Source: Eledone cirrhosa
Taxonomy: Eukaryota
Direction of reading: 5' to 3'
Length of the DNA: 64,000 nt
NCBI GenBank assembly: GCA_964016885.1
Contig: OZ024744.1
Location: 106,454,001 to 106,518,000, forward strand
Part shown: one piece after another, positions 2,476-32,693 of the stretch
Layout: every line of letters starts with the position of its first letter
How positions within the stretch are numbered: position 1 is the stretch's first letter
Translations under genes and position numbers: made by a program
Notes under the pieces: generated by a model
What the model saw: only the letters and a program-made list of their open reading frames with translations
Databases searched by the model: none
What the model was told of the DNA's origin: nothing

Positions 2476-5400
2476 GGGTTGGATGAGATGACCAGGTCAA
2501 TACTGGACATGAGTTGGATGTGTTGACCAGGTCAATACTGGACATGGGTTGGATGAGATGACCAGGTCAATACTGGACATGGGTTGGATATGTTGATCAG
2601 GTCAATACTGGACATGGGTTGGATATGTTGATCAGGTCAATACTGGACACGGGTTGGATGTGGTGTAAATGACCAGGTCAATACTGGACATGGGTTGGAT
2701 GTGGTGTAAATGACCAGGTCAATACTGGACATGGGTTGGATGTGTTGACCAGGTCAATACTGGACATGGGTTGGATGAGATGACCAGGTCAATACTGGAC
2801 ATGGGTTGGATATGTTGATCAGGTCAATACTGGACACGGGTTGGATGTGGTGTAAATGACCAGGTCAATACTGGACATGGGTTGGATGTGGTGTAAATAA
2901 CCAGGTCAATACTGGACACGGGTTGGATGTGGTGTAAATGACCAGGTCAATACTGGACATGGGTTGGATGTGGTGTAAATGACCAGGTCAATACTGGACA
3001 TGGGTTGGATATGTTGATCAGGTCAATACTGGACATGGGTTGGATGTGGTGTAAATGACCAGGTCAATACTGGACATGGGTTGGATGTGTTGATCAGGTC
3101 AATACTGGACATGGGTTGGATGTGGTGTAAATGACCAGGTCAATACTGGACATGGGTTGGATGTGTTGATCAGGTCAATACTGGACATGAGTTGGATGTG
3201 GTGTAAATGACCAGCTCAATCCTGGACATGGGTTGGATGAGATGACCAGGTCAATACTGGACATGGGTTGGATGTGGTGTAAATGACCAGTAAATGCTGG
3301 ACATGGGTTGGATGTGGTGTAAATGACCAGGTCAATACTGGACATGGGTTGGATGTGGTGTAAATAACCAGGTCAATACTGGACATGGGTTGGATGTGGT
3401 GTAAATAACCAGGTTAATACTGGACATGGGTTGGATGTGGTGTAAATAACCAGGTCAATACTGGACATGGGGTGGATGTGGTGTAAATAACCAGGTCAAT
3501 ACTGGACATGGGTTGGATGTGGTGTAAATGACCAGGTCAATATTGGACATGGGTTGGATGTGGTGTAAATAACCAGGTCAATACTGGACATGGGTTGGAT
3601 GTGGTGTAAGTGACCAGGTCAATACTGGACATGGGTTGGATGTGGTGTAAATGACCAGGTCAATACTGGACATGGGTTGGATGTGTTGACCAGGTCAATA
3701 CTGGACATGGGTTGGATGTGGTGTAAATGACCAGGTCAATACTGGACATGGGTTGGATATGTTGATCAGGTCAATACTGGACACGGGTTGGATGTGGTGT
3801 AAATGACCAGGTCAATACTGGACATGGGTTGGATGTGGTGTAAATGACCAGGTCAATACTGGACATGGGTTGGATGTGGTGTAAATGACCAGGTCAATAC
3901 TGGACATGGGTTGGATGTGGTGTAAATGACCAGGTCAATACTGGACATGGGTTGGATGTGGTGTAAATGACCAGTAAATGCTGGACATGGGTTGGATGTG
4001 GTGTAAATGACCAGTAAATGCTGGACATGGGTTGGATGTGGTGTAAATGACCAGGTCAATACTGGACATGGGTTGGATGTGGTGTAAATGACCAGTAAAT
4101 GCTGGACATGGGTTGGATGTGGTGTAAGTGACCAGGTCAATACTGGACATGGGTTGGATGTGGTGTAAGTGACCAGGTCAATACTGGACATGGGTTGGAT
4201 GTGGTGTAAATAACCAGGTCAATACTGGACATGGGGTGGATGTGGTGTAAATAACCAGGTCAATACTGGACATGGGGTGGATGTGGTGTAAATGACCAGG
4301 TCAATACTGGACATGGGTTGGATGTGGTGTAAATGACCAGGTCAATACTGGACATGGGTTGGATGTGGTGTAAATGACCAGTAAATGCTGGACATGGGTT
4401 GGATGTGGTGTAAGTGACCAGGTCAATACTGGACATGGGTTGGATGTGGTGTAAATAACCAGGTCAATACTGGACATGGGGTGGATGTGGTGTAAATGAC
4501 CAGGTCAATACTGGACATGGGTTGGATGTGGTGTAAATGACCAGGTCAATACTGGACATGGGTTGGATGTGGTGTAAATGACCAGTAAATGCTGGACATG
4601 GGTTGGATGTGGTGTAAGTGACCAGGTCAATACTGGACATGGGTTGGATGTGGTGTAAATAACCAGGTCAATACTGGACATGGGTTGGATGTGGTGTAAA
4701 TGACCAGGTCAATACTGGACATGGGTTGGATATGGTGTAAATGACCAGGTCAATACTGGACATGGGGTGGATGTGGTGTAAGTGACCAGGTCAATACTGG
4801 ACATGGGTTGGATGTGGTGTAAATGACCAGGTCAATACTGGACATGGGTTGGATATGGTGTAAATGACCAGGTCAATACTGGACATGGGTTGGATGTGGT
4901 GTAAGTGACCAGGTCAATACTGGACATGGGTTGGATGTGGTGTAAGTGACCAGGTCAATACTGGACATGGGTTGGATGTGGTGTAAATGACCAGGTCAAT
5001 ACTGGACATGGGGTGGATGTGGTGTAAATGACCAGGTCAATACTGGACATGGGGTGGATGTGGTGTAAATAACCAGGTCAATACTGGACATGGGGTGGAT
5101 GTGTTGACCAGATCAATACTGGACATGGGGTGGATGTGGTGTAAATGACCAGATCAATACTGGACATGGGGTGGATGTGGTGTAAATAACCAGGTCAATA
5201 CTGGACATGGGTTGGATGTGGTGTAAATGACCAGGTCAATACTGGACATGGGTTGGATGTGGTGTAAATAACCAGGTCAATACTGGACATGGGGTGGATG
5301 TGGTGTAAATGACCAGGTCAATACTGGACATGGGTTGGATATGTTGATCAGGTCAATACTGGACACGGGTTGGATGTGGTGTAAGTGACCAGGTCAATAC

Positions 5401-7765
5401 TGGACATGGGGTGGATGTGGTGTAAATGACCAGGTCAATACTGGACATGGGTTGGATGTGGTGTAAATAACCAGGTCAATACTGGACATAGGTTGGATAT
5501 GGTGTAAATGACCAGGTCAATACTGGACATGGGGTGGATGTGGTGTAAATAACCAGGTCAATACTGGACATGGGGTGGATGTGGTGTAAGTGACCAGGTC
5601 AATACTGGACATGGGGTGGATGTGGTGTAAATGACCAGGTCAATACTGGACATGGGTTGGATGTGGTGTAAATAACCAGGTCAATACTGGACATGGGGTG
5701 GATGTGGTGTAAATGACCAGGTCAATACTGGACATGGGTTGGATGTGGTGTAAATAACCAGGTCAATACTGGACATGGGGTGGATGTGGTGTAAATGACC
5801 AGGTCAATACTGGACATGGGTTGGATGTGGTGTAAATAACAAGGTCAATACTGGACATGGGGTGGATGTGTTGACCAGGTCAATACTGGACATGGGTTGG
5901 ATGTGGTGTAAATGACCAGGTCAATACTGGACATGGGTTGGATGTGGTGTAAATGACCAGGTCAATACTGGACATGGGGTAGATGTGGTGTAAATAACCA
6001 GGTCAATACTGGACATGGGGTGGATGTGGTGTAAATGACCAGGTCAATACTGGACATGGGTTGGATGTGGTGTAAATAACAAGGTCAATACTGGACATGG
6101 GGTGGATGTGTTGACCAGGTCAATACTGGACATGGGTTGGATGTGGTGTAAATGACCAGGTCAATACTGGACATGGGGTAGATATGGTGTAAGTGACCAG
6201 GTCAATACTGGACATGGGTTGGATGTGGTGTAAATGACCAGGTCAATACTGGACATGGGTTGGATGTGGTGTAAATGACCAGGTCAATACTGGACATGGG
6301 TTGGATGTGGTGTAAATGACCAGGTCAATACTGGACATGGGTTGGATGTGGTGTAAATGACCAGGTCAATACTGGACATGGGGTGGATGTGTTGACCAGG
6401 TCAATGCTGGACATGAGTTGGATGTGGTGTAAATGACCAGCTCAATCCTGGACATGGGTTGGATGAGATGACCAGGTCAATACTGGACATGGGTTGGATG
6501 TGGTGTAAATGACCAGTAAATGCTGGACATGGGTTGGATGTGGTGTAAATGACCAGGTAAATGCTGGACATGGGTTGGATGTGGTGTAAGTGACCAGGTC
6601 AATACTGGACATGGGTTGGATGTGGTGTAAGTGACCAGGTCAATACTGGACATGGGTTGGATGTGGTGTAAGTGACCAGGTCAATACTGGACATGGGTTG
6701 GATGTGGTGTAAGTGACCAGGTCAATACTGGACATGGGTTGGATGTGGTGTAAATGACCAGGTCAATACTGGACATGGGGTGGATGTGGTGTAAATGACC
6801 AGGTCAATACTGGACATGGGTTGGATGTGTTGACCAGGTCAATACTGGACATGGGTTGGATGTGGTGTAAATGACCAGGTCAATACTGGACATGGGGTGG
6901 ATGTGGTGTAAATAACCAGGTCAATACTGGACATGGGTTGGATATGGTGTAAATAACCAGGTCAATACTGGACATGGGTTGGATGTGGTGTAAATGACCA
7001 GGTCAATACTGGACATGGGTTGGATGTGGTGTAAATGACCAGGTCAATACTGGACATGGGGTGGATGTGGTGTAAATGACCAGGTCAATACTGGACATGG
7101 GTTGGATGTGTTGACCAGGTCAATACTGGACATGGGTTGGATGTGGTGTAAATGACCAGGTCAATACTGGACATGGGGTGGATGTGGTGTAAATAACCAG
7201 GTCAATACTGGACATGGGTTGGATATGGTGTAAATAACCAGGTCAATACTGGACATGGGTTGGATGTGGTGTAAATGACCAGGTCAATACTGGACATGGG
7301 TTGGATGTGGTGTAAATGACCAGGTCAATACTGGACATGGGGTGGATGTGGTGTAAATGACCAGGTCAATACTGGACATGCTGACATAGGATGTGGTGTA
7401 AATGACCAGATCAATACTGGACATGGGTTGGATGTGGTGTAAATGACCAGGTCAATACTGGACATGGGGTGGATGTGGTCTAAATGACCAGGTCAATACT
7501 GGACATGGGTTGGATGTGGTGTAAATGACCAGGTCAATACTGGACATGGGTTGGATGTGGTGTAAATGACCAGGTCAATACTGGACATGGGTTGAATGTG
7601 GTGTAAATGACCAGGTCAATACTGGACATGCTGACATAGGATGTGGTGTAAATAACCAGATCAATACTGGACATGGGTTGGATGTGGTGTAAATGACCAG
7701 GTCAATACTGGATATGGGTTGGATGTGGTGTAAATGACCAGAACAATGCTGGACATGCTGACATA
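2476..7765. repeat. 41-bp minisatellite (35/39-bp variants), ~130 copies (GACCAGGTCAATACTGGACATGGGTTGGATGTGGTGTAAAT)
   Basis: Direct periodicity. Confidence 0.97.
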
Positions 7766-8161: not shown

Positions 8162-8327
8162 TAACCTGTCTTTTAGTCAAATCTTGCCTGTAAATGATGT
8201 GAATCTGGAGAATATGGCAAACAAAACCAAAGCCGAAGTCAAGGAATCCTCTCCTAAAACTCCTGAGTATTTACAAAAAAAGCTTCTCATGGTTGAGTAC
8301 AAAGACAGCTGTGAAAACCAAAGTAAG
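8162..8327 (+). CDS. GLE1: Coding exon 2; (S)NLSFSQILPVNDVNLENMANKTKAEVKESSPKTPEYLQKKLLMVEYKDSCENQSK
   Basis: Acceptor ttttccaattccag at 8161 and donor AAG|gtcagt at 8328 (alternative gtaagg at 8323). Phase 2 to 0, and lies within ORF 8121-8519. Confidence 0.65.
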
Positions 8328-8383: not shown

Positions 8384-8733
8384 GGAGGTATATGGCTTAG
8401 TGGTTAGAGCATTGGCCTTGCAATCGAAAGGTTGTGAGTTCAATTCTCAGACCGGGTGGTGTGTTGTTTCCTTGAGCAAGACACTTTATTTCACATTGTT
8501 CCAGTTTACTCAGCTGTAGAAATGAGATGATAGGGACTGGGTTCCCTATCATTCCACTGCAAAGTGGTCGTGAAGGTGCCACGGCAAAAAAGCACCCAGC
8601 ACTCACTGTAGATGAGGTTGGTGTTAGGAAGGGCATCCAGCTGTAGAAATCAAGCCAGAATCAGTTCCCGTCTCACCCTTGCAAGCAGGGAAAAAGCGGA
8701 CGTAAAATGAAATGATGATGATGATGATGATGA
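8384..8733 (+). mobile_element. tRNA-derived SINE, family A
   Basis: Full-length copy of the 441-780 element. Its tail matches the 3' end of the LINE at 61868-62950. Confidence 0.85.
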
Positions 8734-8750
8734 TATATGTATATATATAT

Positions 8751-8822
8751 ACTCTTTTATTCTTTTACTCTTTTACCTGGTCCAGGCCATCTAGCCAATA
8801 CCATGCTGGGGCACCACCCTTC
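8751..8822 (-). mobile_element. Retroposon-like 3' tail fused to the U6 fragment
   Basis: The minus strand reads GAAGGGTGGTGCCCCAGCATGG...CCAGG followed by an 8-bp tail repeat (TAAAAGAG/TAAAAGAA)x3, ending in a (TA)n tract. It resembles the common octopus SINE/LINE tail GGTGCTCCAGCATGGCC...GTAAAAGA as I recall it. Confidence 0.65.
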
Positions 8823-8867
8823 AAAAAATTTGGAACACTTCACGAATTTGCGTGTCATCCTTGCGCA
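8823..8867 (-). pseudogene. U6: U6 snRNA 3' fragment (5'-truncated retrocopy) including the terminal U-tract
   Basis: The minus strand reads TGCGCAAGGATGACACGCAAATTCGTGAAGTGTTCCAAATTTTTT, against canonical U6 3' end TGCGCAAGGATGACACGCAAATTCGTGAAGCGTTCCATATTTTT (2 mismatches). Confidence 0.92.
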
Positions 8868-8871
8868 TATA

Positions 8872-9005
8872 TCATAATCATCATCATTTTATGTCTGCTT
8901 TTCTCTGCTTGCAAGGGTCGGACGGGTCCTATTCAGCACAGCATCTCTCCACTTGTCACGGTCCTTTGTCTTCTCCTCCGTGAGTTTCAGCGATCTGAGG
9001 TCTGT
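8872..9005 (-). mobile_element. Severely 5'-truncated copy of the RTE LINE at 61868
   Basis: About 130 bp nearly identical to 61868-61993. Confidence 0.85.
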
Positions 9006-9014
9006 ATATATATA

Positions 9015-9210
9015 TATTCTATTCTATTCTAAGGCGGGTAAAATTCCCGAGATCCATGGACGAATTCTCTCCAGCGGTCTCTGTCCCTCATTATCGGTGC
9101 CATGTCCTGCGTCTCCAACAGACCAGTGTCTGTCCTTAGGGCATCAACATACGTTAACCTTGGTCTTCCTCTTCTAGTGAGCATGTCCAGCTAACCTCAG
9201 TCTCCTCTGT
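9015..9210 (-). mobile_element. 3' fragment of a second RTE-like LINE
   Basis: The minus strand gives RRLRLAGH...MRDRDRWRE-like remnants and an (AATAG)n tail. Confidence 0.6.
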
Positions 9211-10899: not shown

Positions 10900-13800
10900 C
10901 AGTTGGTATTAAAATTGATAGTCCTTATAGGGGTTATAAAATATATAGTCCCTATAGGGATTATAAAATAGTTTCTATAGTGAGGTAGTTGGTATATATG
11001 GGGCAAGTGTTGCTAATAATATATATATAGTTTCTATAGGGGGGTGTTGGTATAAAAATATATAGTTTCTATAGGGGGGTGTTGGTATACAAATATATAG
11101 TTTCTATAGCGGGTGTTGGTATTAAAATATATAGTTTCTATAGCGGGTGTTGGTATTAAAATATATAGTTTCTATAGGGGGTGTTGGTATTAAAATATAT
11201 AGTTTCTATAGGGGGGTGTTGGTATTAAAATATATAGTTTCTATAGCGGGTGTTGGTATTAAAATATAAAGTTTCTATAGGGGGCTGTTGGTATAAAAAT
11301 ATATAGTTTCTATAGGGTGTGTTGGTATTAAAATATATAGTTTCTATAGGGGGGTGTTGGTATAAAAATATATAGTTTCTATAGCGGGTGTTGGTATTAA
11401 AATATATAGTTTCTATAGAGGGGTGTTGGTATTAAAATATATAGTTTCTATAGGGGGGTGTTGGTATAAAAATGTATAGTTTCTATAGCGGGTGTTGGTA
11501 TTAAAATATATAGTTTCTATAGCGGGTGTTGGTATTAAAATATAAAGTTTGTATAGGGGGGTGTTGGTATAAAAATATATAGTTTCTATAGAGGGGTGTT
11601 GGTATTAAAATATATAGTTTCTATAGGGGGGTGTTGGTATAAAAATATATAGTTTCTATAGGGGGTGTTGGTATTAAAATATATAGTTTCTATAGGGGGG
11701 TGTTGGTATTAAAATATATAGTTTCTGTAGCGGGTGTTGGTATTAAAATATATAGTTTCTATAGCGGGTGTTGGTATTAAAATATATAGTTTCTATAGGG
11801 GGTGTTGGTATTAAAATATATAGTTTCTATAGGGGGGGTGTTGGTATTAAAATATATAGTTCCTTTAGCGGGTGTTGGTATTAAAATATATAGTTTCTAT
11901 AGGGGGTGTTGGTATTAAAATATATAGTTTCTATAGCGGGTGTTGGTATTAAAATATATAGTTTCTATAGGGGGTGTTGGTATTAAAATATATAGTTTCT
12001 ATAGCGGGTGTTGGTAATAAAATATATAGTTTCTATAGAGGGGTGTTGGTATTAAAATATATAGTTTCTATAGGGGGGTGTTGGTATAAAAATATATAGT
12101 TTCTATAGCGGGTGTTGGTATTAAAATATATAGTTTCTATAGCGGGTGTTGGTATTAAAATATAAAGTTTGTATAGGGGGGTGTTGGTATAAAAATATAT
12201 AGTTTCTATAGAGGGGTGTTGGTATTAAAATATATAGTTTCTATAGAGGGGTGTTGGTATAAAAATATATAGTTTCTATAGGGGGTGTTGGTATTAAAAT
12301 ATATAGTTTCTATAGGGGGGTGTTGGTATTAAAATATATAGTTTCTGTAGCGGGTGTTGGTATTAAAATATATAGTTTCTATAGCGGGTGTTGGTATTAA
12401 AATATATAGTTTCTATAGGGGGTGTTGGTATTAAAATATATAGTTTCTATAGGGGGGGTGTTGGTATTAAAATATATAGTTCCTTTAGCGGGTGTTGGTA
12501 TTAAAATATATAGTTTCTATAGGGGGTGTTGGTATTAAAATATATAGTTTCTATAGCGGGTGTTGGTATTAAAATATATAGTTTCTATAGGGGGTGTTGG
12601 TATTAAAATATATAGTTTCTATAGCGGGTGTTGGTATTAAAATATATAGTTTCTATAGGGGGTGTTGGTATTAAAATGTATAGTTTCTGTAGCGGGTGTT
12701 GGTATTAAAATATATAGTTTCTATAGGGGAGTGTTGGTATTAAAATATATAGTTTCTTTAGCGGGTGTTGGTATTAAAATATATAGTTTCTATAGGGGGT
12801 GTTGGTATTAAAATATATAGTTTCTATAGGGGGTGTTGGTATTAAAATATATAGTTTCTATAGCGGGTGTTGGTATTAAAATATATAGTTTCTATAGGGG
12901 GGTGTTGGTATTAAAATATATAGTTTCTATAGCGGGTGTTGGTATTAAAATATATAGTTTCTATAGGGGGGTGTTGGTATTAAAATATATAGTTTCTATA
13001 GGGGGGTGTTGGTATTAAAATATATAGTTTCTATAGCGGGTGTTGGTATTAAAATATAAAGTTTCTATAGGGGAGTGTTGGTATTAAAATATATAGTTTC
13101 TTTAGCGGGTGTTGGTATTAAAATATATAGTTTCTATAGGGGAGTGTTGGTATTAAAATATATAGTTTCTTTAGTGGGTGTTGGTATTAAAATATATAGT
13201 TTCTATAGCGGGTGTTGGTATTAAAATATATAGTTTCTATAGGGGGTGTTGGTATTAAAATATATAGTTTCTATAGCGGGTGTTGGTATTAAAATATATA
13301 GTTTCTATAGGGGGTGTTGGTATTAAAATATATAGTTTCTATAGGGGGGTGTTGGTATTAAAATATATAGTTTCTATAGCGGGTGTTGGTATTAAAATAT
13401 ATAGTTTCTTTAGCGGGTGTTGGTATTAAAATATATAGTTTCTATAGCGGGTGTTGGTATTAAAATATATAGTTTCTATAGGGGGGTGTTGGTATTAAAA
13501 TATATAGTTTCTATAGCGGGTGTTGGTATTAAAATATATAGTTTCTATAGCGGGTGTTGGTATTAAAATATATAGTTTCTATAGCGGGTGTTGGTATTAA
13601 AATATATAGTTTCTATAGGGGGTGTTGGTATTAAAATATATAGTTTCTATAGCGGGTGTTGGTATTAAAATATATAGTTTCTATAGGGGGGGTGTTGGTA
13701 TTAAAATATATAGTTTCTATAGGGGGGTGTTGGTATTAAAATATATAGTTTCTGTAGCGGGTGTTGGTATTAAAATATATAGTTTCTTTAGCGGGTGTTG

Positions 13801-15436
13801 GTATTAAAATATATAGTTTCTATAGGGGGTGTTGGTATTAAAATATATAGTTTCTATAGGGGGTGTTGGTATTAAAATATATAGTTTCTATAGCGGGTGT
13901 TGGTATTAAAATATATAGTTTCTATAGGGGAGTGTTGGTATTAAAATATATAGTTTCTTTAGTGGGTGTTGGTATTAAAATATATAGTTTCTATAGCGGG
14001 TGTTGGTATTAAAATATATAGTTTCTATAGGGGGTGTTGGTATTAAAATATATAGTTTCTATAGCGGGTGTTGGTATTAAAATATATAGTTTCTATAGGG
14101 GGTGTTGGTATTAAAATATATAGTTTCTATAGGGGGGTGTTGGTATTAAAATATATAGTTTCTATAGCGGGTGTTGGTATTAAAATATATAGTTTCTTTA
14201 GCGGGTGTTGGTATTAAAATATATAGTTTCTATAGCGGGTGTTGGTATTAAAATATATAGTTTCTATAGGGGGGTGTTGGTATTAAAATATATAGTTTCT
14301 ATAGCGGGTGTTGGTATTAAAATATATAGTTTCTATAGCGGGTGTTGGTATTAAAATATATAGTTTCTATAGCGGGTGTTGGTATTAAAATATATAGTTT
14401 CTATAGGGGGTGTTGGTATTAAAATATATAGTTTCTATAGCGGGTGTTGGTATTAAAATATATAGTTTCTATAGGGGGGGTGTTGGTATTAAAATATATA
14501 GTTTCTATAGGGGGGGTGTTGGTATTAAAATATATAGTTTCTGTAGCGGGTGTTGGTATTAAAATATATAGTTTCTATAGCGGGTGTTGGTATTAAAATA
14601 TATAGTTTCTATAGGGGGGTGTTGGTATTAAAATATATAGTTTCTATAGCGGGTGTTGGTATTAAAATATATAGTTTCTATAGGGGGGTGTTGGTATTAA
14701 AATATATAGTTTCTATAGGGGGGTGTTGGTATTAAAATATATAGTTTCTATAGCGGGTGTTGGTATTAAAATATAAAGTTTCTATAGGGGAGTGTTGGTA
14801 TTAAAATATATAGTTTCTTTAGCGGGTGTTGGTATTAAAATATATAGTTTCTATAGGGGAGTGTTGGTATTAAAATATATAGTTTCTTTAGCGGGTGTTG
14901 GTATTAAAATATATAGTTTCTATAGCGGGTGTTGGTATTAAAATATATAGTTTCTATAGGGGGTGTTGGTATTAAAATATATAGTTTCTATAGCGGGTGT
15001 TGTTATTAAAACATATAGTTTCTATAGCGGGTGTTGGTATTAAAATATATAGTTTCTATAGGGGGGTGTTGGTATTAAAATATATAGTTTCTATAGGGGG
15101 GTGTTGGTATTAAAATATATAGTTTCTATAGCGGGTGTTGGTATTAAAATATATAGTTTCTATAGGGGAGTGTTGGTATTAAAATATATAGTTTCTATAG
15201 GGGGGTGTTGGTATTAAAATATATAGTTTCTATAGGAGGGTGTTGGTATTAAAATATATAGTTTCTATAGGGGGGTGTTGGTATTAAAATATATAGTTTC
15301 TATAGAGGGGTGTTGGTATTAAAATATATAGTTTCTATAGGGGGGGTGTTGGTATAAAAATATATAGTTTCTATAGAGGGGTGTTGGTATTAAAATATAT
15401 AGTTTCTATAGGGGGGTGTTGGTATAAAAATATATT
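10900..15436. repeat. 34-36-bp minisatellite, ~130 copies (TAGCGGGTGTTGGTATTAAAATATATAGTTTCTA; variable G-run)
   Basis: Direct periodicity. Confidence 0.97.
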
Positions 15437-17070: not shown

Positions 17071-20000
17071 AGGTCCTTGTGATGGCAATGTTTGATAGCT
17101 GGATGTTATTACTGGTATATTGCTATAGTTACCATGAGGTCCTTGTGATGGCAATGTTTGATAGCTGGATGTTATTACTGGTATATTGCTATAGTTACCA
17201 TGAGGTCCTTGTGATGGCAATGTTTGGTAGTTGGATGTTATTACTGGTATATTGCTATAGTTACCATGAGGTCCTTGTGATGGCAATGTTTGATAGCTGG
17301 ATGTTATTACTGGTATATTGCTATAGTTACCATGAGGTCCTTGTGATGGCAATGTTTGATAGCTGGATGTTATTACTGGTATATTGCTATAGTTACCATG
17401 AGGTCCTTGTGATGGCAATGTTTGGTAGTTGGATGTTATTACTGGTATATTGCTATAGTTACCATGAGGTCCTTGTGATGGCAATGTTTGATAGCTGGAT
17501 GTTATTACTGGTATATTGCTATAGTTACCATGAGGTCCTTGTGATGGCAATGTTTGATAGCTGGATGTTATTACTGGTATATTGCTATAGTTACCATGAG
17601 GTCCTTGTGATGGCAATGTTTGGTAGTTGGATGTTATTACTGGTATATTGCTATAGTTACCATGGGGTCCTTGTGATGGCAATGTTTGATAGCTGGATGT
17701 TATTACTGGTATATTGCTATAGTTACCATGGGGTCCTTGTGATGGCAATGTTTGGTAGTTGGATGTTATTACTGGTATATTGCTATAGTTACCATGAGGT
17801 CCTTGTGATGGCAATGTTTGATAGCTGGATGTTATTACTGGTATATTGCTATAGTTACCATGGGGTCCTTGTGATGGCAATGTTTGGTAGCTGGCTGTTA
17901 TTACTGGTATATTGCTATAGTTACCATGAGGTCCTTGTGATGGCAATGTTTGATAGCTGGATGTTATTACTGGTATATTGCTATAGTTACCATGAGGTCC
18001 TTGTGATGGCAATGTTTGATAGCTGGATGTTATTACTGGTATATTGCTATAGTTACCATGGGGTCCTTGTGATGGCAATGTTTGGTAGCTGGATGTTATT
18101 ACTGGTATATTGCTATAGTTACCATGGGGTCCTTGTGATGGCAATGTTTGATAGCTGGATGTTATTACTGGTATATTGCTATAGTTACCATGAGGTCCTT
18201 GTGATGGCAATGTTTGGTAACTGGATGTTATTACTGGTATATTGCTATAGTTACCATGAGGTCCTTGTGATGGCAATGTTTGATAGCTGGATGTTATTAC
18301 TGGTATATTGCTATAGTTACCATGAGGTCCTTGTGATGGCAATGTCTGATAGCTGGATGTTATTACTGGTATATTGCTATAGTTACCATGAGGTCCTTGT
18401 GATGGCAATGTTTGATAGCTGGATGTTATTACTGGTATATTGCTATAGTTACCATGAGGTCCTTGTGATGGCAATGTTTGATAGTTGGATGTTATTACTG
18501 GTATATTGCTATAGTTACCATGGGGTCCTTGTGATGGCAATGTTTGGTAGCTGGATGTTATTACTGGTATATTGCTATAGTTACCATGGGGTCCTTGTGA
18601 TGGCAATGTTTGATAGCTGGATGTTATTACTGGTATATTGCTATAGTTACCATGAGGTCCTTGTGATGGCAATGTTTGATAGCTGGATGTTATTACTGGT
18701 ATATTGCTATAGTTACCATGGGGTCCTTGTGATGGCAATGTTTGGTAGTTGGATGTTATTACTGGTATATTGCTATAGTTACCATGGGGTCCTTGTGATG
18801 GCAATGTTTGGTAGCTGGATGTTATTACTGGTATATTGCTATAGTTACCATGAGGTCCTTGTGATGGCAATGTTTGGTAGCTGGATGTTATTACTGGTAT
18901 ATTGCTATAGTTACCATGAGATCCTTGTGATGGCAATGTTTGGTAGTTGGATGTTATTACTGGTATATTGCTATAGTTACCATGGGGTCCTTGTGATGGC
19001 AATGTTTGGTAGCTGGATGTTATTACTGGTATATTGCTATAGTTACCATGGGGTCCTTGTGATGGCAATGTTTGGTAGCTGGATGTTATTACTGGTATAT
19101 TGCTATAGTTACCATGAGATCCTTGTGATGGCAATGTTTGATAGCTGGATGTTATTACTGGTATATTGCTATAGTTACCATGAGGTCCTTGTGATGGCAA
19201 TGTTTGATAGCTGGATGTTATTACTGGTATATTGCTATAGTTACCATGGGGTCCTTGTGATAGCAATGTTAGGTAGCTGGATGTTATTACTGGTATATTG
19301 CTATAGTTACCATGAGGTCCTTGTGATGGCAATGTTTGGTAGTTGGATGTTATTACTGGTATATTGCTATAGTTACCATGAGGTCCTTGTGATGGCAATG
19401 TTTGGTAGTTGGATGTTATTACTGGTATATTGCTATAGTTACCATGAGGTCCTTGTGATAGCAATGTTAGGTAGCTGGATGTTATTACTGGTATATTGCT
19501 ATAGTTACCATGAGGTCCTTGTGATGGCAATGTTTGGTAGCTGGATGTTATTACTGGTATATTGCTATAGTTACCATGAGGTCCTTGTGATGGCAATGTT
19601 TGGTAGTTGGATGTTATTACTGGTATATTGCTATAGTTACCATGAGGTCCTTGTGATGGCAATGTTTGGTAGCTGGATGTTATTACTGGTATATTGCTAT
19701 AGTTACCATGGGGTCCTTGTGATGGCAATGTTTGGTAGCTGGATGTTATTACTGGTATATTGCTATAGTTACCATGGGGTCCTTGTGATAGCAATGTTAG
19801 GTAGTTGGATGTTATTACTGGTATATTGCTATAGTTACCATGGGGTCCTTGTGATGGCAATGTTTGGTAGCTGGATGTTATTACTGGTATATTGCTATAG
19901 TTACCATGGGGTCCTTGTGATAGCAATGTTAGGTAGTTGGATGTTATTACTGGTATATTGCTATAGTTACCATGGGGTCCTTGTGATGGCAATGTTTGGT

Positions 20001-23000
20001 AGCTGGATGTTATTACTGGTATATTGCTATAGTTACCATGAGATCCTTGTGATGGCAATGTTTGGTAGTTGGATGTTATTACTGGTATATTGCTATAGTT
20101 ACCATGAGGTCCTTGTGATGGCAATGTTAGGTAGCTGGATGTTATTACTGGTATATTGCTATAGTTACCATGGGGTCCTTGTGATGGCAATGTTTGGTAG
20201 CTGGATGTTATTACTGGTATATTGCTATAGTTACCATGGGGTCCTTGTGATGGCAATGTTTGATAGCTGGATGTTATTACTGGTATATTGCTATAGTTAC
20301 CATGAGGTCCTTGTGATGGCAATGTTTGATAGCTGGATGTTATTACTGGTATATTGCTATAGTTACCATGGGGTCCTTGTGATGGCAATGTTTGATAGCT
20401 GGATGTTATTACTGGTATATTGCTATAGTTACCATGAGGTCCTTGTGATGGCAATGTTTGATAGCTGGATGTTATTACTGGTATATTGCTATAGTTACCA
20501 TGAGGTCCTTGTGATGGCAATGTTTGATAGTTGGATGTTATTACTGGTATATTGCTATAGTTACCATGGGGTCCTTGTGATGGCAATGTTTGGTAGCGAG
20601 ATGTTATTACTGGTATATTGCTATAGTTACCATGAGGTCCTTGTGATGGCAATGTCTGATAGCTGGATGTTATTACTGGTATATTGCTATAGTTACCATG
20701 AGGTCCTTGTGATGGCAATGTTTGGTAGCTGGATGTTATTACTGGTATATTGCTATAGTTACCATGGGGTCCTTGTGATGGCAATGTTTGGTAGCTGGAT
20801 GTTATTACTGGTATATTGCTATAGTTACCATGGGGTCCTTGTGATGGCAATGTCTGATAGCTGGATGTTATTACTGGTATATTGCTATAGTTACCATGAG
20901 ATCCTTGTGATGGCAATGTTTGGTAGTTGGATGTTATTACTGGTATATTGCTATAGTTACCATGAGGTCCTTGTGATGGCAATGTCTGATAGCTGGATGT
21001 TATTACTGGTATATTGCTATAGTTACCATGAGGTCCTTGTGATGGCAATGTTTGGTAGCGAGATGTTATTACTGGTATATTGCTATAGTTACCATGGGGT
21101 CCTTGTGATGGCAATGTTTGGTAGCTGGATGTTATTACTGGTATATTGCTATAGTTACCATGAGGTCCTTGTGATGGCAATGTTTGGTAGCGAGATGTTA
21201 TTACTGGTATATTGCTATAGTTACCATGGGGTCCTTGTGATGGCAATGTTTGGTAGCTGGATGTTATTACTGGTATATTGCTATAGTTACCATGAGGTCC
21301 TTGTGATGGCAATGTCTGATAGCTGGATGTTATTACTGGTATATTGCTATAGTTACCATGAGGTCCTTGTGATGGCAATGTTTGGTAGCTGGATGTTATT
21401 ACTGGTATATTGCTATAGTTACCATGGGGTCCTTGTGATGGCAATGTTTGGTAGCTGGCTGTTATTACTGGTATATTGCTATAGTTACCATGAGGTCCTT
21501 GTGATGGCAATGTTTGGTAGTTGGATGTTATTACTGGTATATTGCTATAGTTACCATGGGGTCCTTGTGATGGCAATGTTTGGTAGTTGGATGTTATTAC
21601 TGGTATATTGCTATAGTTACCATGAGGTCCTTGTGATGGCAATGTTTGATAGCTGGATGTTATTACTGGTATATTGCTATAGTTACCATGGGGTCCTTGT
21701 GATGGCAATGTTTGATAGCTGGATGTTATTACTGGTATATTGCTATAGTTACCATGAGGTCCTTGTGATGGCAATGTTTGGTAGCTGGATGTTATTACTG
21801 GTATATTGCTATAGTTACCATGAGGTCCTTGTGATGGCAATGTCTGATAGCTGGATGTTATTACTGGTATATTGCTATAGTTACCATGGGGTCCTTGTGA
21901 TGGCAATGTCTGATAGCTGGATGTTATTACTGGTATATTGCTATAGTTACCATGGGGTCCTTGTGATGGCAATGTCTGATAGCTGGATGTTATTACTGGT
22001 ATATTGCTATAGTTACCATGGGGTCCTTGTGATGGCAATGTTTGGTAGCTGGCTGTTATTACTGGTATATTGCTATAGTTACCATGAGGTCCTTGTGATG
22101 GCAATGTTTGATAGCTGGATGTTATTACTGGTATATTGCTATAGTTACCATGGGGTCCTTGTGATGGCAATGTCTGATAGCTGGATGTTATTACTGGTAT
22201 ATTGCTATAGTTACCATGGGGTCCTTGTGATGGCAATGTCTGATAGCTGGATGTTATTACTGGTATATTGCTATAGTTACCATGGGGTCCTTGTGATGGC
22301 AATGTCTGATAGCTGGATGTTATTACTGGTATATTGCTATAGTTACCATGGGGTCCTTGTGATGGCAATGTTTGGTAGCTGGATGTTATTACTGGTATAT
22401 TGCTATAGTTACCATGGGGTCCTTGTGATGGCAATGTCTGATAGCTGGATGTTATTACTGGTATATTGCTATAGTTACCATGAGGTCCTTGTGATGGCAA
22501 TGTTTGGTAGCTGGCTGTTATTACTGGTATATTGCTATAGTTACCATGAGGTCCTTGTGATGGCAATGTTTGGTAGCTGGCTGTTATTACTGGTATATTG
22601 CTATAGTTACCATGAGGTCCTTGTGATGGCAATGTTTGATAGCTGGATGTTATTACTGGTATATTGCTATAGTTACCATGGGGTCCTTGTGATGGCAATG
22701 TTTGGTAGCTGGATGTTATTACTGGTATATTGCTATAGTTACCATGGGGTCCTTGTGATGGCAATGTTTGATAGCTGGATGTTATTACTGGTATATTGCT
22801 ATAGTTACCATGAGGTCCTTGTGATGGCAATGTTTGGTAGCTGGATGTTATTACTGGTATATTGCTATAGTTACCATGAGGTCCTTGTGATGGCAATGTT
22901 TGGTAGCTGGATGTTATTACTGGTATATTGCTATAGTTACCATGGGGTCCTTGTGATGGCAATGTTTGATAGCTGGATGTTATTACTGGTATATTGCTAT

Positions 23001-26000
23001 AGTTACCATGGGGTCCTTGTGATGGCAATGTTTGATAGCTGGATGTTATTACTGGTATATTGCTATAGTTACCATGAGGTCCTTGTGATGGCAATGTTTG
23101 ATAGCTGGATGTTATTACTGGTATATTGCTATAGTTACCATGAGGTCCTTGTGATGGCAATGTTTGGTAGCTGGATGTTATTACTGGTATATTGCTATAG
23201 TTACCATGAGGTCCTTGTGATGGCAATGTTTGATAGCTGGATGTTATTACTGGTATATTGCTATAGTTACCATGGGGTCCTTGTGATGGCAATGTTTGGT
23301 AGCTGGATGTTATTACTGGTATATTGCTATAGTTACCATGAGGTCCTTGTGATGGCAATGTTTGGTAGCTGGATGTTATTACTGGTATATTGCTATAGTT
23401 ACCATGGGGTCCTTGTGATGGCAATGTTTGGTAGCTGGATGTTATTACTGGTATATTGCTATAGTTACCATGAGGTCCTTGTGATGGCAATGTTTGATAG
23501 CTGGATGTTATTACTGGTATATTGCTATAGTTACCATGGGGTCCTTGTGATGGCAATGTCTGATAGCTGGATGTTATTACTGGTATATTGCTATAGTTAC
23601 CATGGGGTCCTTGTGATGGCAATGTCTGATAGCTGGATGTTATTACTGGTATATTGCTATAGTTACCATGAGGTCCTTGTGATGGCAATGTTTGATAGCT
23701 GGATGTTATTTCTGGTATATTGCTATAGTTACCATGAGGTCCTTGTGATGGCAATGTCTGATAGCTGGATGTTATTACTGGTATATTGCTATAGTTACCA
23801 TGAGGTCCTTGTGATGGCAATGTTTGATAGCTGGATGTTATTACTGGTATATTGCTATAGTTACCATGAGGTCCTTGTGATGGCAATGTTTGGTAGCTGG
23901 ATGTTATTACTGGTATATTGCTATAGTTACCATGAGGTCCTTGTGATGGCAATGTTTGGTAGTTGGATGTTATTACTGGTATATTGCTATAGTTACCATG
24001 GGGTCCTTGTGATGGCAATGTTTGGTAGCTGGATGTTATTACTGGTATATTGCTATAGTTACCATGGGGTCCTTGTGATGGCAATGTCTGATAGTTGGAT
24101 GTTATTACTGGTATATTGCTATAGTTACCATGAGGTCCTTGTGATGGCAATGTCTGATAGTTGGATGTTATTACTGGTATATTGCTATAGTTACCATGGG
24201 GTCCTTGTGATGGCAATGTCTGATAGTTGGATGTTATTACTGGTATATTGCTATAGTTACCATGGGGTCCTTGTGATGGCAATGTCTGATAGTTGGATGT
24301 TATTACTGGTATATTGCTATAGTTACCATGAGGTCCTTGTGATGGCAATGTTTGGTAGTTGGATGTTATTACTGGTATATTGCTATAGTTACCATGGGGT
24401 CCTTGTGATGGCAATGTTTGGTAGCTGGATGTTATTACTGGTATATTGCTATAGTTACCATGAGGTCCTTGTGATGGCAATGTTTGATAGTTGGATGTTA
24501 TTACTGGTATATTGCTATAGTTACCATGAGGTCCTTGTGATGGCAATGTTTGATAGCGAGATGTTATTACTGGTATATTGCTATAGTTACCATGGGGTCC
24601 TTGTGATGGCAATGTTTGGTAGCTGGATGTTATTACTGGTATATTGCTATAGTTACCATGAGGTCCTTGTGATGGCAATGTCTGATAGCTGGATGTTATT
24701 ACTGGTATATTGCTATAGTTACCATGAGGTCCTTGTGATGGCAATGTCTGATAGCTGGATGTTATTACTGGTATATTGCTATAGTTACCATGAGGTCCTT
24801 GTGATGGCAATGTTTGATAGCTGGATGTTATTACTGGTATATTGCTATAGTTACCATGAGGTCCTTGTGATGGCAATGTTTGGTAGCTGGATGTTATTAC
24901 TGGTATATTGCTATAGTTACCATGAGGTCCTTGTGATGGCAATGTCTGATAGCTGGATGTTATTACTGGTATATTGCTATAGTTACCATGAGGTCCTTGT
25001 GATGGCAATGTTTGGTAGCGAGATGTTATTACTGGTATATTGCTATAGTTACCATGAGGTCCTTGTGATGGCAATGTCTGGTAGTTGGATGTTATTACTG
25101 GTATATTGCTATAGTTACCATGAGATCCTTGTGATGGCAATGTTTGGTAGCTGGATGTTATTACTGGTATATTGCTATAGTTACCATGAGGTCCTTGTGA
25201 TGGCAATGTTTGATAGCTGGATGTTATTACTGGTATATTGCTATAGTTACCATGAGGTCCTTGTGATGGCAATGTTTGATAGCTGGATGTTATTACTGGT
25301 ATATTGCTATAGTTACCATGAGGTCCTTGTGATGGCAATGTTTGGTAGCTGGCTGTTATTACTGGTATATTGCTATAGTTACCATGAGGTCCTTGTGATG
25401 GCAATGTTTGGTAGCTGGATGTTATTACTGGTATATTGCTATAGTTACCATGAGGTCCTTGTGATGGCAATGTTTGGTAGTTGGATGTTATTACTGGTAT
25501 ATTGCTATAGTTACCATGAGGTCCTTGTGATGGCAATGTTTGGTAGTTGGATGTTATTACTGGTATATTGCTATAGTTACCATGAGGTCCTTGTGATGGC
25601 AATGTTTGGTAGCTGGATGTTATTACTGGTATATTGCTATAGTTACCATGGGGTCCTTGTGATGGCAATGTTTGATAGCTGGATGTTATTACTGGTATAT
25701 TGCTATAGTTACCATGAGGTCCTTGTGATGGCAATGTTTGGTAGCTCGATGTTATTACTGGTATATTGCTATAGTTACCATGAGGTCCTTGTGATGGCAA
25801 TGTTTGGTAGCTGGCTGTTATTACTGGTATATTGCTATAGTTACCATGAGGTCCTTGTGATGGCAATGTTTGATAGCTGGATGTTATTACTGGTATATTG
25901 CTATAGTTACCATGGGGTCCTTGTGATGGCAATGTTTGGTAGCTGGCTGTTATTACTGGTATATTGCTATAGTTACCATGAGGTCCTTGTGATGGCAATG

Positions 26001-29000
26001 TTTGATAGCTGGATGTTATTACTGGTATATTGCTATAGTTACCATGAGGTCCTTGTGATGGCAATGTTTGGTAGCGAGATGTTATTACTGGTATATTGCT
26101 ATAGTTACCATGGGGTCCTTGTGATGGCAATGTTTGGTAGCTGGATGTTATTACTGGTATATTGCTATAGTTACCATGGGGTCCTTGTGATGGCAATGTT
26201 TGGTAGCTGGATGTTATTACTGGTATATTGCTATAGTTACCATGAGGTCCTTGTGATGGCAATGTTTGGTAGCTGGCTGTTATTACTGGTATATTGCTAT
26301 AGTTACCATGAGGTCCTTGTGATGGCAATGTTTGGTAGCTGGCTGTTATTACTGGTATATTGCTATAGTTACCATGAGGTCCTTGTGATGGCAATGTTTG
26401 GTAGCTGGATGTTATTACTGGTATATTGCTATAGTTACCATGGGGTCCTTGTGATGGCAATGTTTGGTAGCTCGATGTTATTACTGGTATATTGCTATAG
26501 TTACCATGGGGTCCTTGTGATGGCAATGTTTGGTAGCTGGCTGTTATTACTGGTATATTGCTATAGTTACCATGAGGTCCTTGTGATGGCAATGTTTGAT
26601 AGCTGGATGTTATTACTGGTATATTGCTATAGTTACCATGAGGTCCTTGTGATGGCAATGTTTGGTAGTTGGATGTTATTACTGGTATATTGCTATAGTT
26701 ACCATGAGATCCTTGTGATAGCAATGTTTGGTAGCTGGATGTTATTACTGGTATATTGCTATAGTTACCATGGGGTCCTTGTGATGGCAATGTTTGATAG
26801 TTGGATGTTATTACTGGTATATTGCTATAGTTACCATGGGGTCCTTGTGATGGCAATGTTTGGTAGCTCGATGTTATTACTGGTATATTGCTATAGTTAC
26901 CATGAGGTCCTTGTGATGGCAATGTTTGGTAGCTGGATGTTATTACTGGTATATTGCTATAGTTACCATGAGGTCCTTGTGATGGCAATGTTTGGTAGCT
27001 CGATGTTATTACTGGTATATTGCTATAGTTACCATGAGGTCCTTGTGATGGCAATGTTTGATAGCTGGATGTTATTACTGGTATATTGCTATAGTTACCA
27101 TGAGGTCCTTGTGATGGCAATGTTTGATAGCTGGATGTTATTACTGGTATATTGCTATAGTTACCATGAGGTCCTTGTGATGGCAATGTTTGGTAGCTGG
27201 CTGTTATTACTGGTATATTGCTATAGTTACCATGAGGTCCTTGTGATGGCAATGTTTGGTAGCTGGATGTTATTACTGGTATATTGCTATAGTTACCATG
27301 GGGTCCTTGTGATGGCAATGTTTGGTAGCTCGATGTTATTACTGGTATATTGCTATAGTTACCATGGGGTCCTTGTGATGGCAATGTTTGGTAGCTGGCT
27401 GTTATTACTGGTATATTGCTATAGTTACCATGAGGTCCTTGTGATGGCAATGTTTGATAGCTGGATGTTATTACTGGTATATTGCTATAGTTACCATGAG
27501 GTCCTTGTGATGGCAATGTTTGGTAGTTGGATGTTATTACTGGTATATTGCTATAGTTACCATGAGATCCTTGTGATAGCAATGTTTGGTAGCTGGATGT
27601 TATTACTGGTATATTGCTATAGTTACCATGGGGTCCTTGTGATGGCAATGTTTGATAGTTGGATGTTATTACTGGTATATTGCTATAGTTACCATGGGGT
27701 CCTTGTGATGGCAATGTTTGGTAGCTGGATGTTATTACTGGTATATTGCTATAGTTACCATGAGGTCCTTGTGATGGCAATGTTTGATAGCTGGATGTTA
27801 TTACTGGTATATTGCTATAGTTACCATGAGGTCCTTGTGATGGCAATGTTTGATAGCTGGATGTTATTACTGGTATATTGCTATAGTTACCATGGGGTCC
27901 TTGTGATGGCAATGTTTGATAGCTGGATGTTATTACTGGTATATTGCTATAGTTACCATGAGGTCCTTGTGATGGCAATGTTTGGTAGCTGGCTGTTATT
28001 ACTGGTATATTGCTATAGTTACCATGAGGTCCTTGTGATGGCAATGTTTGGTAGCTGGATGTTATTACTGGTATATTGCTATAGTTACCATGAGGTCCTT
28101 GTGATGGCAATGTTTGGTAGTTGGATGTTATTACTGGTATATTGCTATAGTTACCATGAGGTCCTTGTGATGGCAATGTCTGATAGCTGGATGTTATTAC
28201 TGGTATATTGCTATAGTTACCATGAGGTCCTTGTGATGGCAATGTTTGGTAGCTCGATGTTATTACTGGTATATTGCTATAGTTACCATGAGGTCCTTGT
28301 GATGGCAATGTTTGGTAGCTGGATGTTATTACTGGTATATTGCTATAGTTACCATGAGGTCCTTGTGATGGCAATGTTTGGTAGCTGGCTGTTATTACTG
28401 GTATATTGCTATAGTTACCATGGGGTCCTTGTGATGGCAATGTCTGGTAGCTGGATGTTATTACTGGTATATTGCTATAGTTACCATGAGGTCCTTGTGA
28501 TGGCAATGTTTGGTAGCTGGATGTTATTACTGGTATATTGCTATAGTTACCATGGGGTCCTTGTGATGGCAATGTCTGATAGCTGGATGTTATTACTGGT
28601 ATATTGCTATAGTTACCATGAGGTCCTTGTGATGGCAATGTTTGGTAGCTGGATGTTATTACTGGTATATTGCTATAGTTACCATGGGGTCCTTGTGATG
28701 GCAATGTCTGGTAGCTGGATGTTATTACTGGTATATTGCTATAGTTACCATGAGGTCCTTGTGATGGCAATGTTTGGTAGTTGGATGTTATTACTGGTAT
28801 ATTGCTATAGTTACCATGAGGTCCTTGTGATGGCAATGTTTGGTAGTTGGATGTTATTACTGGTATATTGCTATAGTTACCATGGGGTCCTTGTGATGGC
28901 AATGTTTGGTAGCTCGATGTTATTACTGGTATATTGCTATAGTTACCATGAGGTCCTTGTGATGGCAATGTTTGGTAGCTGGATGTTATTACTGGTATAT

Positions 29001-32000
29001 TGCTATAGTTACCATGAGGTCCTTGTGATGGCAATGTTTGGTAGCTGGCTGTTATTACTGGTATATTGCTATAGTTACCATGGGGTCCTTGTGATGGCAA
29101 TGTCTGGTAGCTGGATGTTATTACTGGTATATTGCTATAGTTACCATGAGGTCCTTGTGATGGCAATGTTTGGTAGCTGGATGTTATTACTGGTATATTG
29201 CTATAGTTACCATGGGGTCCTTGTGATGGCAATGTTTGGTAGTTGGCTGTTATTACTGGTATATTGCTATAGTTACCATGAGGTCCTTGTGATGGCAATG
29301 TTTGGTAGTTGGATGTTATTACTGGTATATTGCTATAGTTACCATGAGGTCCTTGTGATGGCAATGTTTGATAGCTGGATGTTATTACTGGTATATTGCT
29401 ATAGTTACCATGAGGTCCTTGTGATGGCAATGTTTGGTAGTTGGATGTTATTACTGGTATATTGCTATAGTTACCATGAGGTCCTTGTGATGGCAATGTT
29501 TGGTAGTTGGATGTTATTACTGGTATATTGCTATAGTTACCATGAGGTCCTTGTGATGGCAATGTCTGATAGCTGGATGTTATTACTGGTATATTGCTAT
29601 AGTTACCATGAGGTCCTTGTGATGGCAATGTTTGATAGCTGGATGTTATTACTGGTATATTGCTATAGTTACCATGAGGTCCTTGTGATGGCAATGTTTG
29701 ATAGCTGGATGTTATTACTGGTATATTGCTATAGTTACCATGAGGTCCTTGTGATGGCAATGTTTGGTAGTTGGATGTTATTACTGGTATATTGCTATAG
29801 TTACCATGAGGTCCTTGTGATGGCAATGTTTGGTAGCTGGCTGTTATTACTGGTATATTGCTATAGTTACCATGAGGTCCTTGTGATGGCAATGTTTGGT
29901 AGTTGGATGTTATTACTGGTATATTGCTATAGTTACCATGAGGTCCTTGTGATGGCAATGTTTGGTAGTTGGATGTTATTACTGGTATATTGCTATAGTT
30001 ACCATGAGGTCCTTGTGATGGCAATGTTTGGTAGCTGGATGTTATTACTGGTATATTGCTATAGTTACCATGAGGTCCTTGTGATGGCAATGTTTGGTAG
30101 TTGGATGTTATTACTGGTATATTGCTATAGTTACCATGGGGTCCTTGTGATGGCAATGTTTGGTAGCTGGATGTTATTACTGGTATATTGCTATAGTTAC
30201 CATGGGGTCCTTGTGATGGCAATGTTTGGTAGTTGGATGTTATTACTGGTATATTGCTATAGTTACCATGGGGTCCTTGTGATGGCAATGTTTGGTAGCT
30301 GGATGTTATTACTGGTATATTGCTATAGTTACCATGAGGTCCTTGTGATGGCAATGTTAGGTAGTTGGATGTTATTACTGGTATATTGCTATAGTTACCA
30401 TGAGGTCCTTGTGATGGCAATGTTTGGTAGTTGGATGTTATTACTGGTATATTGCTATAGTTACCATGAGGTCCTTGTGATGGCAATGTTAGGTAGTTGG
30501 ATGTTATTACTGGTATATTGCTATAGTTACCATGAGGTCCTTGTGATGGCAATGTTAGGTAGTTGGATGTTATTACTGGTATATTGCTATAGTTACCATG
30601 AGGTCCTTGTGATGGCAATGTTTGGTAGTTGGATGTTATTACTGGTATATTGCTATAGTTACCATGGGGTCCTTGTGATGGCAATGTTTGATAGCTGGAT
30701 GTTATTACTGGTATATTGCTATAGTTACCATGAGATCCTTGTGATGGCAATGTTTGGTAGTTGGATGTTATTACTGGTATATTGCTATAGTTACCATGAG
30801 GTCCTTGTGATGGCAATGTTTGGTAGCTGGCTGTTATTACTGGTATATTGCTATAGTTACCATGAGGTCCTTGTGATGGCAATGTTTGGTAGCTGGATGT
30901 TATTACTGGTATATTGCTATAGTTACCATGAGGTCCTTGTGATGGCAATGTTTGGTAGCTGGATGTTATTACTGGTATATTGCTATAGTTACCATGGGGT
31001 CCTTGTGATGGCAATGTCTGATAGCTGGATGTTATTACTGGTATATTGCTATAGTTACCATGGGGTCCTTGTGATGGCAATGTCTGATAGCTGGATGTTA
31101 TTACTGCTATATTGCTATAGTTACCATGGGGTCCTTGTGATAGCAATGTTAGGTAGCTGGATGTTATTACTGGTATATTGCTATAGTTACCATGGGGTCC
31201 TTGTGATGGCAATGTCTGATAGCTGGATGTTATTACTGGTATATTGCTATAGTTACCATGGGGTCCTTGTGATAGCAATGTTAGGTAGCTGGATGTTATT
31301 ACTGGTATATTGCTATAGTTACCATGAGGTCCTTGTGATGGCAATGTTTGGTAGTTGGATGTTATTACTGGTATATTGCTATAGTTACCATGGGGTCCTT
31401 GTGATGGCAATGTTTGGTAGTTGGATGTTATTACTGGTATATTGCTATAGTTACCATGGGGTCCTTGTGATGGCAATGTTTGGTAGCTGGATGTTATTAC
31501 TGGTATATTGCTATAGTTACCATGAGGTCCTTGTGATGGCAATGTTTGGTAGTTGGATGTTATTACTGGTATATTGCTATAGTTACCATGGGGTCCTTGT
31601 GATGGCAATGTTTGGTAGTTGGATGTTATTACTGGTATATTGCTATAGTTACCATGGGGTCCTTGTGATGGCAATGTTTGGTAGTTGGATGTTATTACTG
31701 GTATATTGCTATAGTTACCATGAGGTCCTTGTGATGGCAATGTTTGGTAGTTGGATGTTATTACTGGTATATTGCTATAGTTACCATGGGGTCCTTGTGA
31801 TGGCAATGTTTGGTAGTTGGATGTTATTACTGGTATATTGCTATAGTTACCATGGGGTCCTTGTGATGGCAATGTTTGGTAGTTGGATGTTATTACTGGT
31901 ATATTGCTATAGTTACCATGGGGTCCTTGTGATGGCAATGTTTGGTAGTTGGATGTTATTACTGGTATATTGCTATAGTTACCATGGGGTCCTTGTGATG

Positions 32001-32693
32001 GCAATGTTTGGTAGTTGGATGTTATTACTGGTATATTGCTATAGTTACCATGGGGTCCTTGTGATGGCAATGTTTGGTAGTTGGATGTTATTACTGGTAT
32101 ATTGCTATAGTTACCATGGGGTCCTTGTGATGGCAATGTTTGATAGCTGGATGTTATTACTGGTATATTGCTATAGTTACCATGAGGTCCTTGTGATGGC
32201 AATGTTTGGTAGTTGGATGTTATTACTGGTATATTGCTATAGTTACCATGAGGTCCTTGTGATGGCAATGTTTGGTAGTTGGATGTTATTACTGGTATAT
32301 TGCTATAGTTACCATGAGGTCCTTGTGATGGCAATGTCTGGTAGCTGGATGTTATTACTGGTATATTGCTATAGTTACCATGAGGTCCTTGTGATGGCAA
32401 TGTTTGGTAGTTGGATGTTATTACTGGTATATTGCTATAGTTACCATGAGGTCCTTGTGATGGCAATGTCTGGTAGCTGGATGTTATTACTGGTATATTG
32501 CTATAGTTACCATGAGGTCCTTGTGATGGCAATGTTTGGTAGTTGGATGTTATTACTGGTATATTGCTATAGTTACCATGAGGTCCTTGTGATGGCAATG
32601 TCTGGTAGCTGGATGTTATTACTGGTATATTGCTATAGTTACCATGAGGTCCTTGTGATGGCAATGTTAGGTAGTTGGATGTTATTACTGGTA
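17071..32693. repeat. 66-bp tandem array, ~237 copies, without frameshifting indels
   Basis: Unit CATGAGGTCCTTGTGATGGCAATGTTTGATAGCTGGATGTTATTACTGGTATATTGCTATAGTTAC. It is open on both strands (5211 and 5213 aa ORFs). Confidence 0.98.

Follow-up and report, generated by a model that had tools for sequence, protein, structure and literature searches.

U6 and other Pol III RNAs joined at one position to short 3′ stubs of a LINE in the Eledone cirrhosa genome

Introduction

SINEs have long been proposed to gain LINE tails by template switching, and few intermediates of this process are observable. A stretch of 64,000 nucleotides from Eledone cirrhosa (assembly GCA_964016885.1, contig OZ024744.1, positions 106,454,001 to 106,518,000; hereafter the window) carries on its minus strand the 3′ end of a U6 snRNA running into what a preliminary description, made from the letters alone, took for a LINE- or SINE-like tail. 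That description left two readings: a chimera made by ligation or template switching with a non-L1 retroposon, or a 5′-truncated copy of an undescribed SINE family with a U6 head. Here we ask which reading the genome bears out, which element the tail belongs to and how the two parts came to be joined.

A decayed U6–LINE chimera in the window

The U6 3′ end is indeed joined to a retroposon tail: U6 positions 64–107 (2 mismatches) and T6 are followed by one extra G before the tail begins, and comparison with a U6 gene of the same genome (locus L044) places the two mismatches at U6 positions 94 and 101 (Table 1). Rfam scores the U6 part at 37.6 bits (E 1.3e-7, 1-kb region searched), and a scan of the whole window at the gathering score of 44 returned no U6 match because the copy is truncated. 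The earlier impression of a unit inside a (TA)n tract was roughly right, with AT repeat reaching over 5 nt upstream and ~18 nt downstream. ATATA occurs on either side of the unit, a 5-nt match within this tract that is not diagnostic as a target-site duplication, and no convincing duplication was seen in the flanks. The short AT tract is itself placed between tail-to-tail fragments of other retroelements, and the chimera is inserted into the end of an unrelated LINE with ATG repeats, which is probably RTE-like by its motif. At 10.8% divergence, against a mean of 4.1%, the window copy is the most diverged of the U6–tail units described below. Its tail variant is unique genome-wide, as a pattern allowing 1 mismatch matches this copy alone, and the idea that the tail represents a separate LINE subfamily was dropped on that result. 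The window copy is an old, promoterless and shortened U6 fossil, dead because U6 needs an upstream promoter that was not carried along.

Table 1. Parts of the chimera and its immediate surroundings, in window positions
Feature	Position	Strand	Remark
5′-truncated U6 snRNA copy	8829..8867	-	U6 positions 64-102, 2 mismatches
T6 run, the U6 3′ oligo(U) end	8823..8828	-	
Single G, neither U6 nor LINE	8822	-	non-templated letter or later mutation of LINE C at offset -7
3′ UTR stub of putatively CR1-like LINE	8776..8821	-	older G-variant, decayed double hairpin; 46 nt
LINE 8-nt terminal repeat, three units	8751..8775	-	running into TA target
AT-repeat target tract	8733..8750	not assigned	downstream of chimera
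3′ end of unrelated LINE with ATG repeats	8868..9003	-	upstream neighbour, outside chimeric element

Around the chimera, a tRNA-SINE head and several LINE 3′ fragments are stacked in AT tracts (8387–8454 and 8590–8733 on the plus strand, 8875–9205 on the minus strand). An open frame between AG and GTAAG at 8176–8325 on the plus strand is a possible exon, in which case the chimera would be antisense in the following intron. Large minisatellite arrays at 2488–7757, 11007–15435, 17071–32693 and 51363–58853 (41-, 34-, 66- and 27-bp units) occupy about half of the window.

Recurrence and independent origin of the U6 joins

A search of the 3.0-Gb genome with the 117-nt unit found 41 places that match across the seam, and junction searches with reversed patterns as controls gave 0 matches. 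With further pattern searches and fetched loci we collected at least 45 distinct U6–tail units, a lower bound that excludes one locus with a diverged tail under the score cut (L151). The units are dispersed over many chromosomes with unrelated flanks. In 42 of the 45 (L117, L121 and L145 are left out), U6 is joined at LINE offsets −6 to −9. These 42 hotspot copies show 34 different seams, a few of which recur 2–3 times. The T-run at the seam is 1–10 long, most commonly T5–T6 (26/42) and T4–T6 in 31/42, and letters that are neither T nor LINE stand at the seam in 19 copies and are absent from 23. U6 5′ ends span positions 1 to 79, with the full 5′ end kept in 8 units. In a junction-blind set, 21 of 63 dispersed exact matches to the U6 3′ end are attached to this LINE, in every case inside its last 71 nt and never further in; given 45% long copies, the chance of 0/21 joins on the long part is 0.55^21 = 4e-6, the two samples differing in age. 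In 11 places U6 precedes a complete tRNA-SINE, attached to its 5′ end, and joins to the tails of several other elements occur as well. Other repeats carry U6 at, or immediately beside, their hammerhead cut sites (L057, L146, L153, L111 and L127, the last two by eye).

Such an arrangement could in principle reflect two separate adjacent insertions, or duplication at the DNA level of a U6 gene with its natural flank. TA tracts here do collect nested insertions, also at the window. Against two insertions, neither target sequence nor a duplication separates U6 from the tail, and the arrangement is repeated 45 times with unrelated flanks; against duplication, the best 30 U6-family loci include real genes of which none carries the tail, and the U6 genes examined have other 3′ flanks. 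Both explanations, which the preliminary description had named as possible refutations, are extremely improbable.

The real U6 genes are of two types that differ at positions 6, 10 and 24: one is found as single genes on C5 and on C9, the other as a tandem array on C19 (30 exact matches). These genes carry an octamer at −76 to −78 and a TATA element at −30. The array (L046–L073, C19:31.78–31.84 Mb) consists of ~34 U6 genes of the variant type in a 1.8-kb unit, several of which carry a SINE insertion in place of the promoter that would lie upstream of the TATA region.

A U6-headed SINE family was the first reading of the junction matches. Under this reading, a host promoter would have driven transcription of one master copy, or of a few, from which the ~45 copies were made, and a single junction position, varied 5′ ends, a LINE recognition tail, wide dispersal and the few recurrent seams would all fit. 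We dropped it on the gene types, the seams and the absence of shared mutations. The U6 heads equal the two existing gene types at all three diagnostic sites, so that two apparent head subfamilies, once considered, turned out to be these gene types; each type is found with each tail variant (U6 type by tail variant 1/8/2/10 in 21 typeable copies, Fisher p = 1). Among 990 pairs of U6–tail units, none shares two or more non-CpG substitutions, and the 34 seams in 42 copies come with no shared derived changes in a search that was not exhaustive and leaves room for a daughter group of 2–3 copies. The octamer is absent upstream of all 8 full-length chimeras, and many unrelated RNAs occupy the same seam, as described below. 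The units thus lack a shared seam, family-private changes and a promoter of their own, and resemble SINEs in their 3′ tail, which an autonomous LINE also carries. Later decay may account for some of the seam variety, given the mean divergence of 4.1%, and a star-shaped tree by itself also fits one short-lived master. On balance a low-copy U6-headed SINE is very unlikely, and the seams, U6 types and substitutions make an independent, recurrent origin of the U6–tail joins, as in U6/LINE chimeric pseudogenes, very likely. Of the two original readings, then, the recurrent chimera with a non-L1 retroposon is supported and the SINE family is not.

The partner LINE and its stubs

The tail is the 3′ end of a LINE, and the remaining possible refutation in the preliminary description, a segment matching no retroposon 3′ end, does not apply. 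A 32-nt motif from it has 3,339 exact matches genome-wide, and long copies continue into an intact 1074-aa open reading frame with endonuclease (APE) and reverse transcriptase (RT) domains, the autonomous element sought for this 3′ end. Young copies of the LINE are 96–99% alike and 89% identical to an older subfamily. Its best named relative is from Argonauta hians (60%), and a bird RT is among the best 120 matches to its RT (35%). Together with presumed CR1-like motifs at its C terminus, the bird match hints that the partner may belong near CR1, and features of that clade are present, namely an ORF2 with APE and RT and a short 3′ UTR with a stem-loop and a tandem-repeat end.

Copies of this LINE form two size classes, one long and one of stubs. 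The 80 exact tails that come first on C1 comprise 44 that end 0–8 nt upstream of the motif (24 of them at 7–8), 5 at 10–399 nt and 31 at 400 nt or more, so that in 44 of 80 consecutive tails the 5′ ends fall in a 9-nt window about 65 nt from the LINE 3′ end. The next 13 LINE bases are kept exactly in 1,170 of the 3,339 exact tails. The boundary lies at most 4 nt 5′ of a predicted double hairpin, and a step in read depth marks it in DNA runs of organisms A–D, although the step is weak evidence in B and C because their LINE body has diverged. The idea that the stubs are truncated copies of a hidden SINE was dropped, since they share no upstream sequence. An A-box-like motif is visible by eye in the stub and no B box was seen. 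One tRNA-SINE family (L005, L014, L035, L095 and others) starts with nearly the same 10–11 letters as the LINE stub, by chance or shared origin.

The stub hotspot also explains why the units resemble a SINE family. The preliminary description had proposed that an identical junction with variable 5′ ends would indicate a U6-SINE, and different junctions recurrent chimera formation. This rule would mislead here: the copies have one junction place and varied 5′ ends because the LINE has a stub hotspot, and a fixed junction with variable 5′ ends does not by itself demonstrate a SINE family.

Other Pol III RNAs at the same seam

U6 is one of several RNAs found at the stub seam. In a census of the heads on 83 distinct tails preceded by T4 (Rfam run on 59 of the 83), we counted 12 U6 and 22 Rfam-supported RNAs of other kinds, comprising 14 tRNAs (2 of them Sec), 7 5S RNAs and 1 SRP RNA, the last a whole SRP (7SL) RNA scoring 228 bits. 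All 22 non-U6 heads lie on the same strand as the stub and end 6–37 nt before the seam, with a trailer. Six more tails resemble tRNA 3′ fragments (L167, L182, L234, L235 and L244 by BLAST, L178 by eye). Two tRNA-His chimeras have different seams and 5′ ends and carry both the leader and the trailer of one source gene (L294, on C15), and were therefore copied from its primary transcript. BLAST matches to the 5S entry L174 are artefacts of AT repeats and were ignored, and in a downstream control two tRNA matches (L008, L225) lie in neighbouring tRNA-derived SINEs. A clear RNA head precedes 3 of 44 unselected stubs (L103 by eye, L165, L169), which would scale to an estimated 150 or so RNA-headed stubs among ~2,000 exact stubs.

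Other heads have no Rfam assignment. Those of L179, L209 and L203 end in T-runs and are without a match to any Rfam family; the last ~13 nt are common to L179 and L209, which possibly represent an unannotated Pol III RNA. The heads of L197, L236, L207 and L239 at the stub seam are tRNA-like, went unreported by Rfam and are possibly diverged Pol III genes.

Ligation or template jumping

Two routes could place these RNAs at a fixed seam. In the first, RtcB would ligate U6, through its 2′,3′-cyclic phosphate, to a LINE RNA whose cleavage at one fixed site has left a 5′-OH, and the fused RNA would then be reverse transcribed. Cleavage at a constant position would account for the sharp boundary of the stubs, and the common T5–T6 runs and the seams without a non-T letter are as in ligation products. 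A U6 with T5 and no extra letter stands exactly at a hammerhead cut site at L057 (and by eye at L146, with L153 one off), an arrangement that RtcB ligation would be expected to produce. Across 11 places, 1 U6 and 0 tRNA or 5S heads were counted at the hammerhead cut site, too few to discriminate. A ribozyme at the stub boundary was considered and dropped: the sequence upstream of the LINE seam contains no hammerhead core, and Rfam gave no ribozyme match at the tail in 60 loci scanned. The 19 of 42 seams with non-T letters and the spread of offsets likewise weigh against ligation, and pre-tRNA, 5S and 7SL at the same seam are left unaccounted for unless two routes use one site. Precursor tRNAs and 5S RNAs end in 3′-OH, and these ends, like the 5′ ends of SINEs, should lack what RtcB needs. 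In the parts of Moldovan et al. 2019 available to us (PMC6789731), ligation by RtcB is demonstrated for human U6/L1, requires a cyclic phosphate and a 5′-OH, and does not join U6-OH or 5′-triphosphate ends efficiently. We consider ligation of U6 to a cut LINE RNA the less likely source of these units, though a serious rival for U6.

We favour instead run-off template jumping, in which the LINE RT, having run off the 5′ end of a putative ~65-nt LINE RNA fragment, would have switched to U6 at its oligo(U) 3′ end; for the U6–stub joins this is the probable route. The stub boundary is fixed, the joins are in sense and at oligo(U) ends, and the copies originated independently; the following steps could yield this outcome. 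ORF2p bound to the hairpins would protect a ~65-nt RNA remnant from 5′–3′ decay, or would stall there, and the remnant would prime at TA-rich DNA through its terminal repeat. At the end of the template the enzyme may add non-templated letters, mostly A, that pair with the 3′ U-runs of nuclear Pol III RNAs, and would copy the second RNA until it falls off, leaving the varied U6 5′ ends. Template jumping by R2 RT requires non-templated addition, mostly of A, according to the sections of PMC8857657 that we could consult; the same source found A-overhangs of three or more non-productive in assays and doubts a physiological role for jumping, and these two points weigh against the jump model. Between ligation and template switching, the partners other than U6 favour a jump. 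A broader proposal, that the LINE makes a free ~65-nt recognition RNA (the ORF2p footprint) that retrotransposes alone, outnumbers the long copies and is grafted by run-off jumping onto any U-ended Pol III primary transcript, is one that we put forward tentatively, as a possibility somewhat short of an even bet.

Discussion

U6/LINE chimeras are known in vertebrates with L2, RTE, CR1 and SINE partners, and the papers searched, as far as their accessible parts extend, do not describe complete precursor RNAs at a fixed stub junction. No U6-headed SINE family and no such chimera in a cephalopod is reported in the open-access literature searched. The closest precedents are the chimeric pseudogenes of non-L1 clades described by Doucet et al. 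2015 (PMC4476161; read in part), which include platypus U6-L2 and U6-Mon-1, Anolis U6-L2, U6-RTEX-2 and U6-AnolisSINE2, and one turkey U6-CR1. Our units conform to that type: a complete U6 3′ end, of a U6 that is often 5′-truncated, is joined directly and in the same orientation to a small part of a 5′-truncated non-LTR element, there a stringent LINE, and platypus has a similar number (about 40 copies). The chimeras of that study have a small target duplication or none, and the window copy shows a 5-nt match in an AT tract. Our units differ in their invertebrate host, in having a single join position, that of the stub class to which more than half of the LINE copies belong, and in sharing the seam with pre-tRNA, 5S and 7SL; the junction positions in platypus may be given in the supplements of that study. 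Human U6/L1 chimeras likewise join a U6 ending in about 4–8 T to a 5′-truncated LINE, and differ, on what we could read of Moldovan et al. 2019 (PMC6789731), in having no favoured L1 position and precise seams, where the present set has one position, frequent extra letters and partners with 3′-OH ends. The L1 chimeras with tRNA, 5S, 7SL, Y and 7SK RNAs (bioRxiv 2025, PMC11838501) involve the same small RNA classes 5′ of a LINE. In the portion of that preprint available to us, however, the tRNA and 5S parts are mostly antisense halves attributed to twin priming, whereas all 22 Rfam-supported heads here are in sense with a genomic trailer and T-run. The crocodilian SINEU-1/2/3 (Kojima 2015, PMC4494074; consulted in part) resemble our units in placing an snRNA head on a LINE-mobilised unit and in repeated 5′ snRNA additions; in contrast to those U1- and U2-headed families, with about 140–7,700 copies and subfamilies, we find tens of one-off copies without lineage.

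The stub-and-capture system, of which the window holds a single dead copy, is the interesting part of these observations. One young LINE has left dozens of head–tail joins at a fixed point, with every known class of Pol III head and with the source genes still present, and the route of SINE birth thereby becomes testable in this genome. The stub chimeras are raw material for new SINEs and do not constitute a SINE family, and they suggest why such births are rare: the T-run of the terminator is retained and U6 loses its promoter. If the proposal of a free recognition RNA is true, this genome would hold an estimated hundred or more ready-made proto-SINEs with tRNA, 5S, 7SL and snRNA heads, most of them silenced by the terminator at the seam, and the set would directly document, in fossil form, how the birth of a SINE begins. 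A further observation concerns the placement of the units. At L039 (the same as L002/L007), L104, L113 and L123, U6 chimeras occur as back-to-back pairs on opposite strands within ~100 bp, and these pairs look as if both ends of one break had primed separately.
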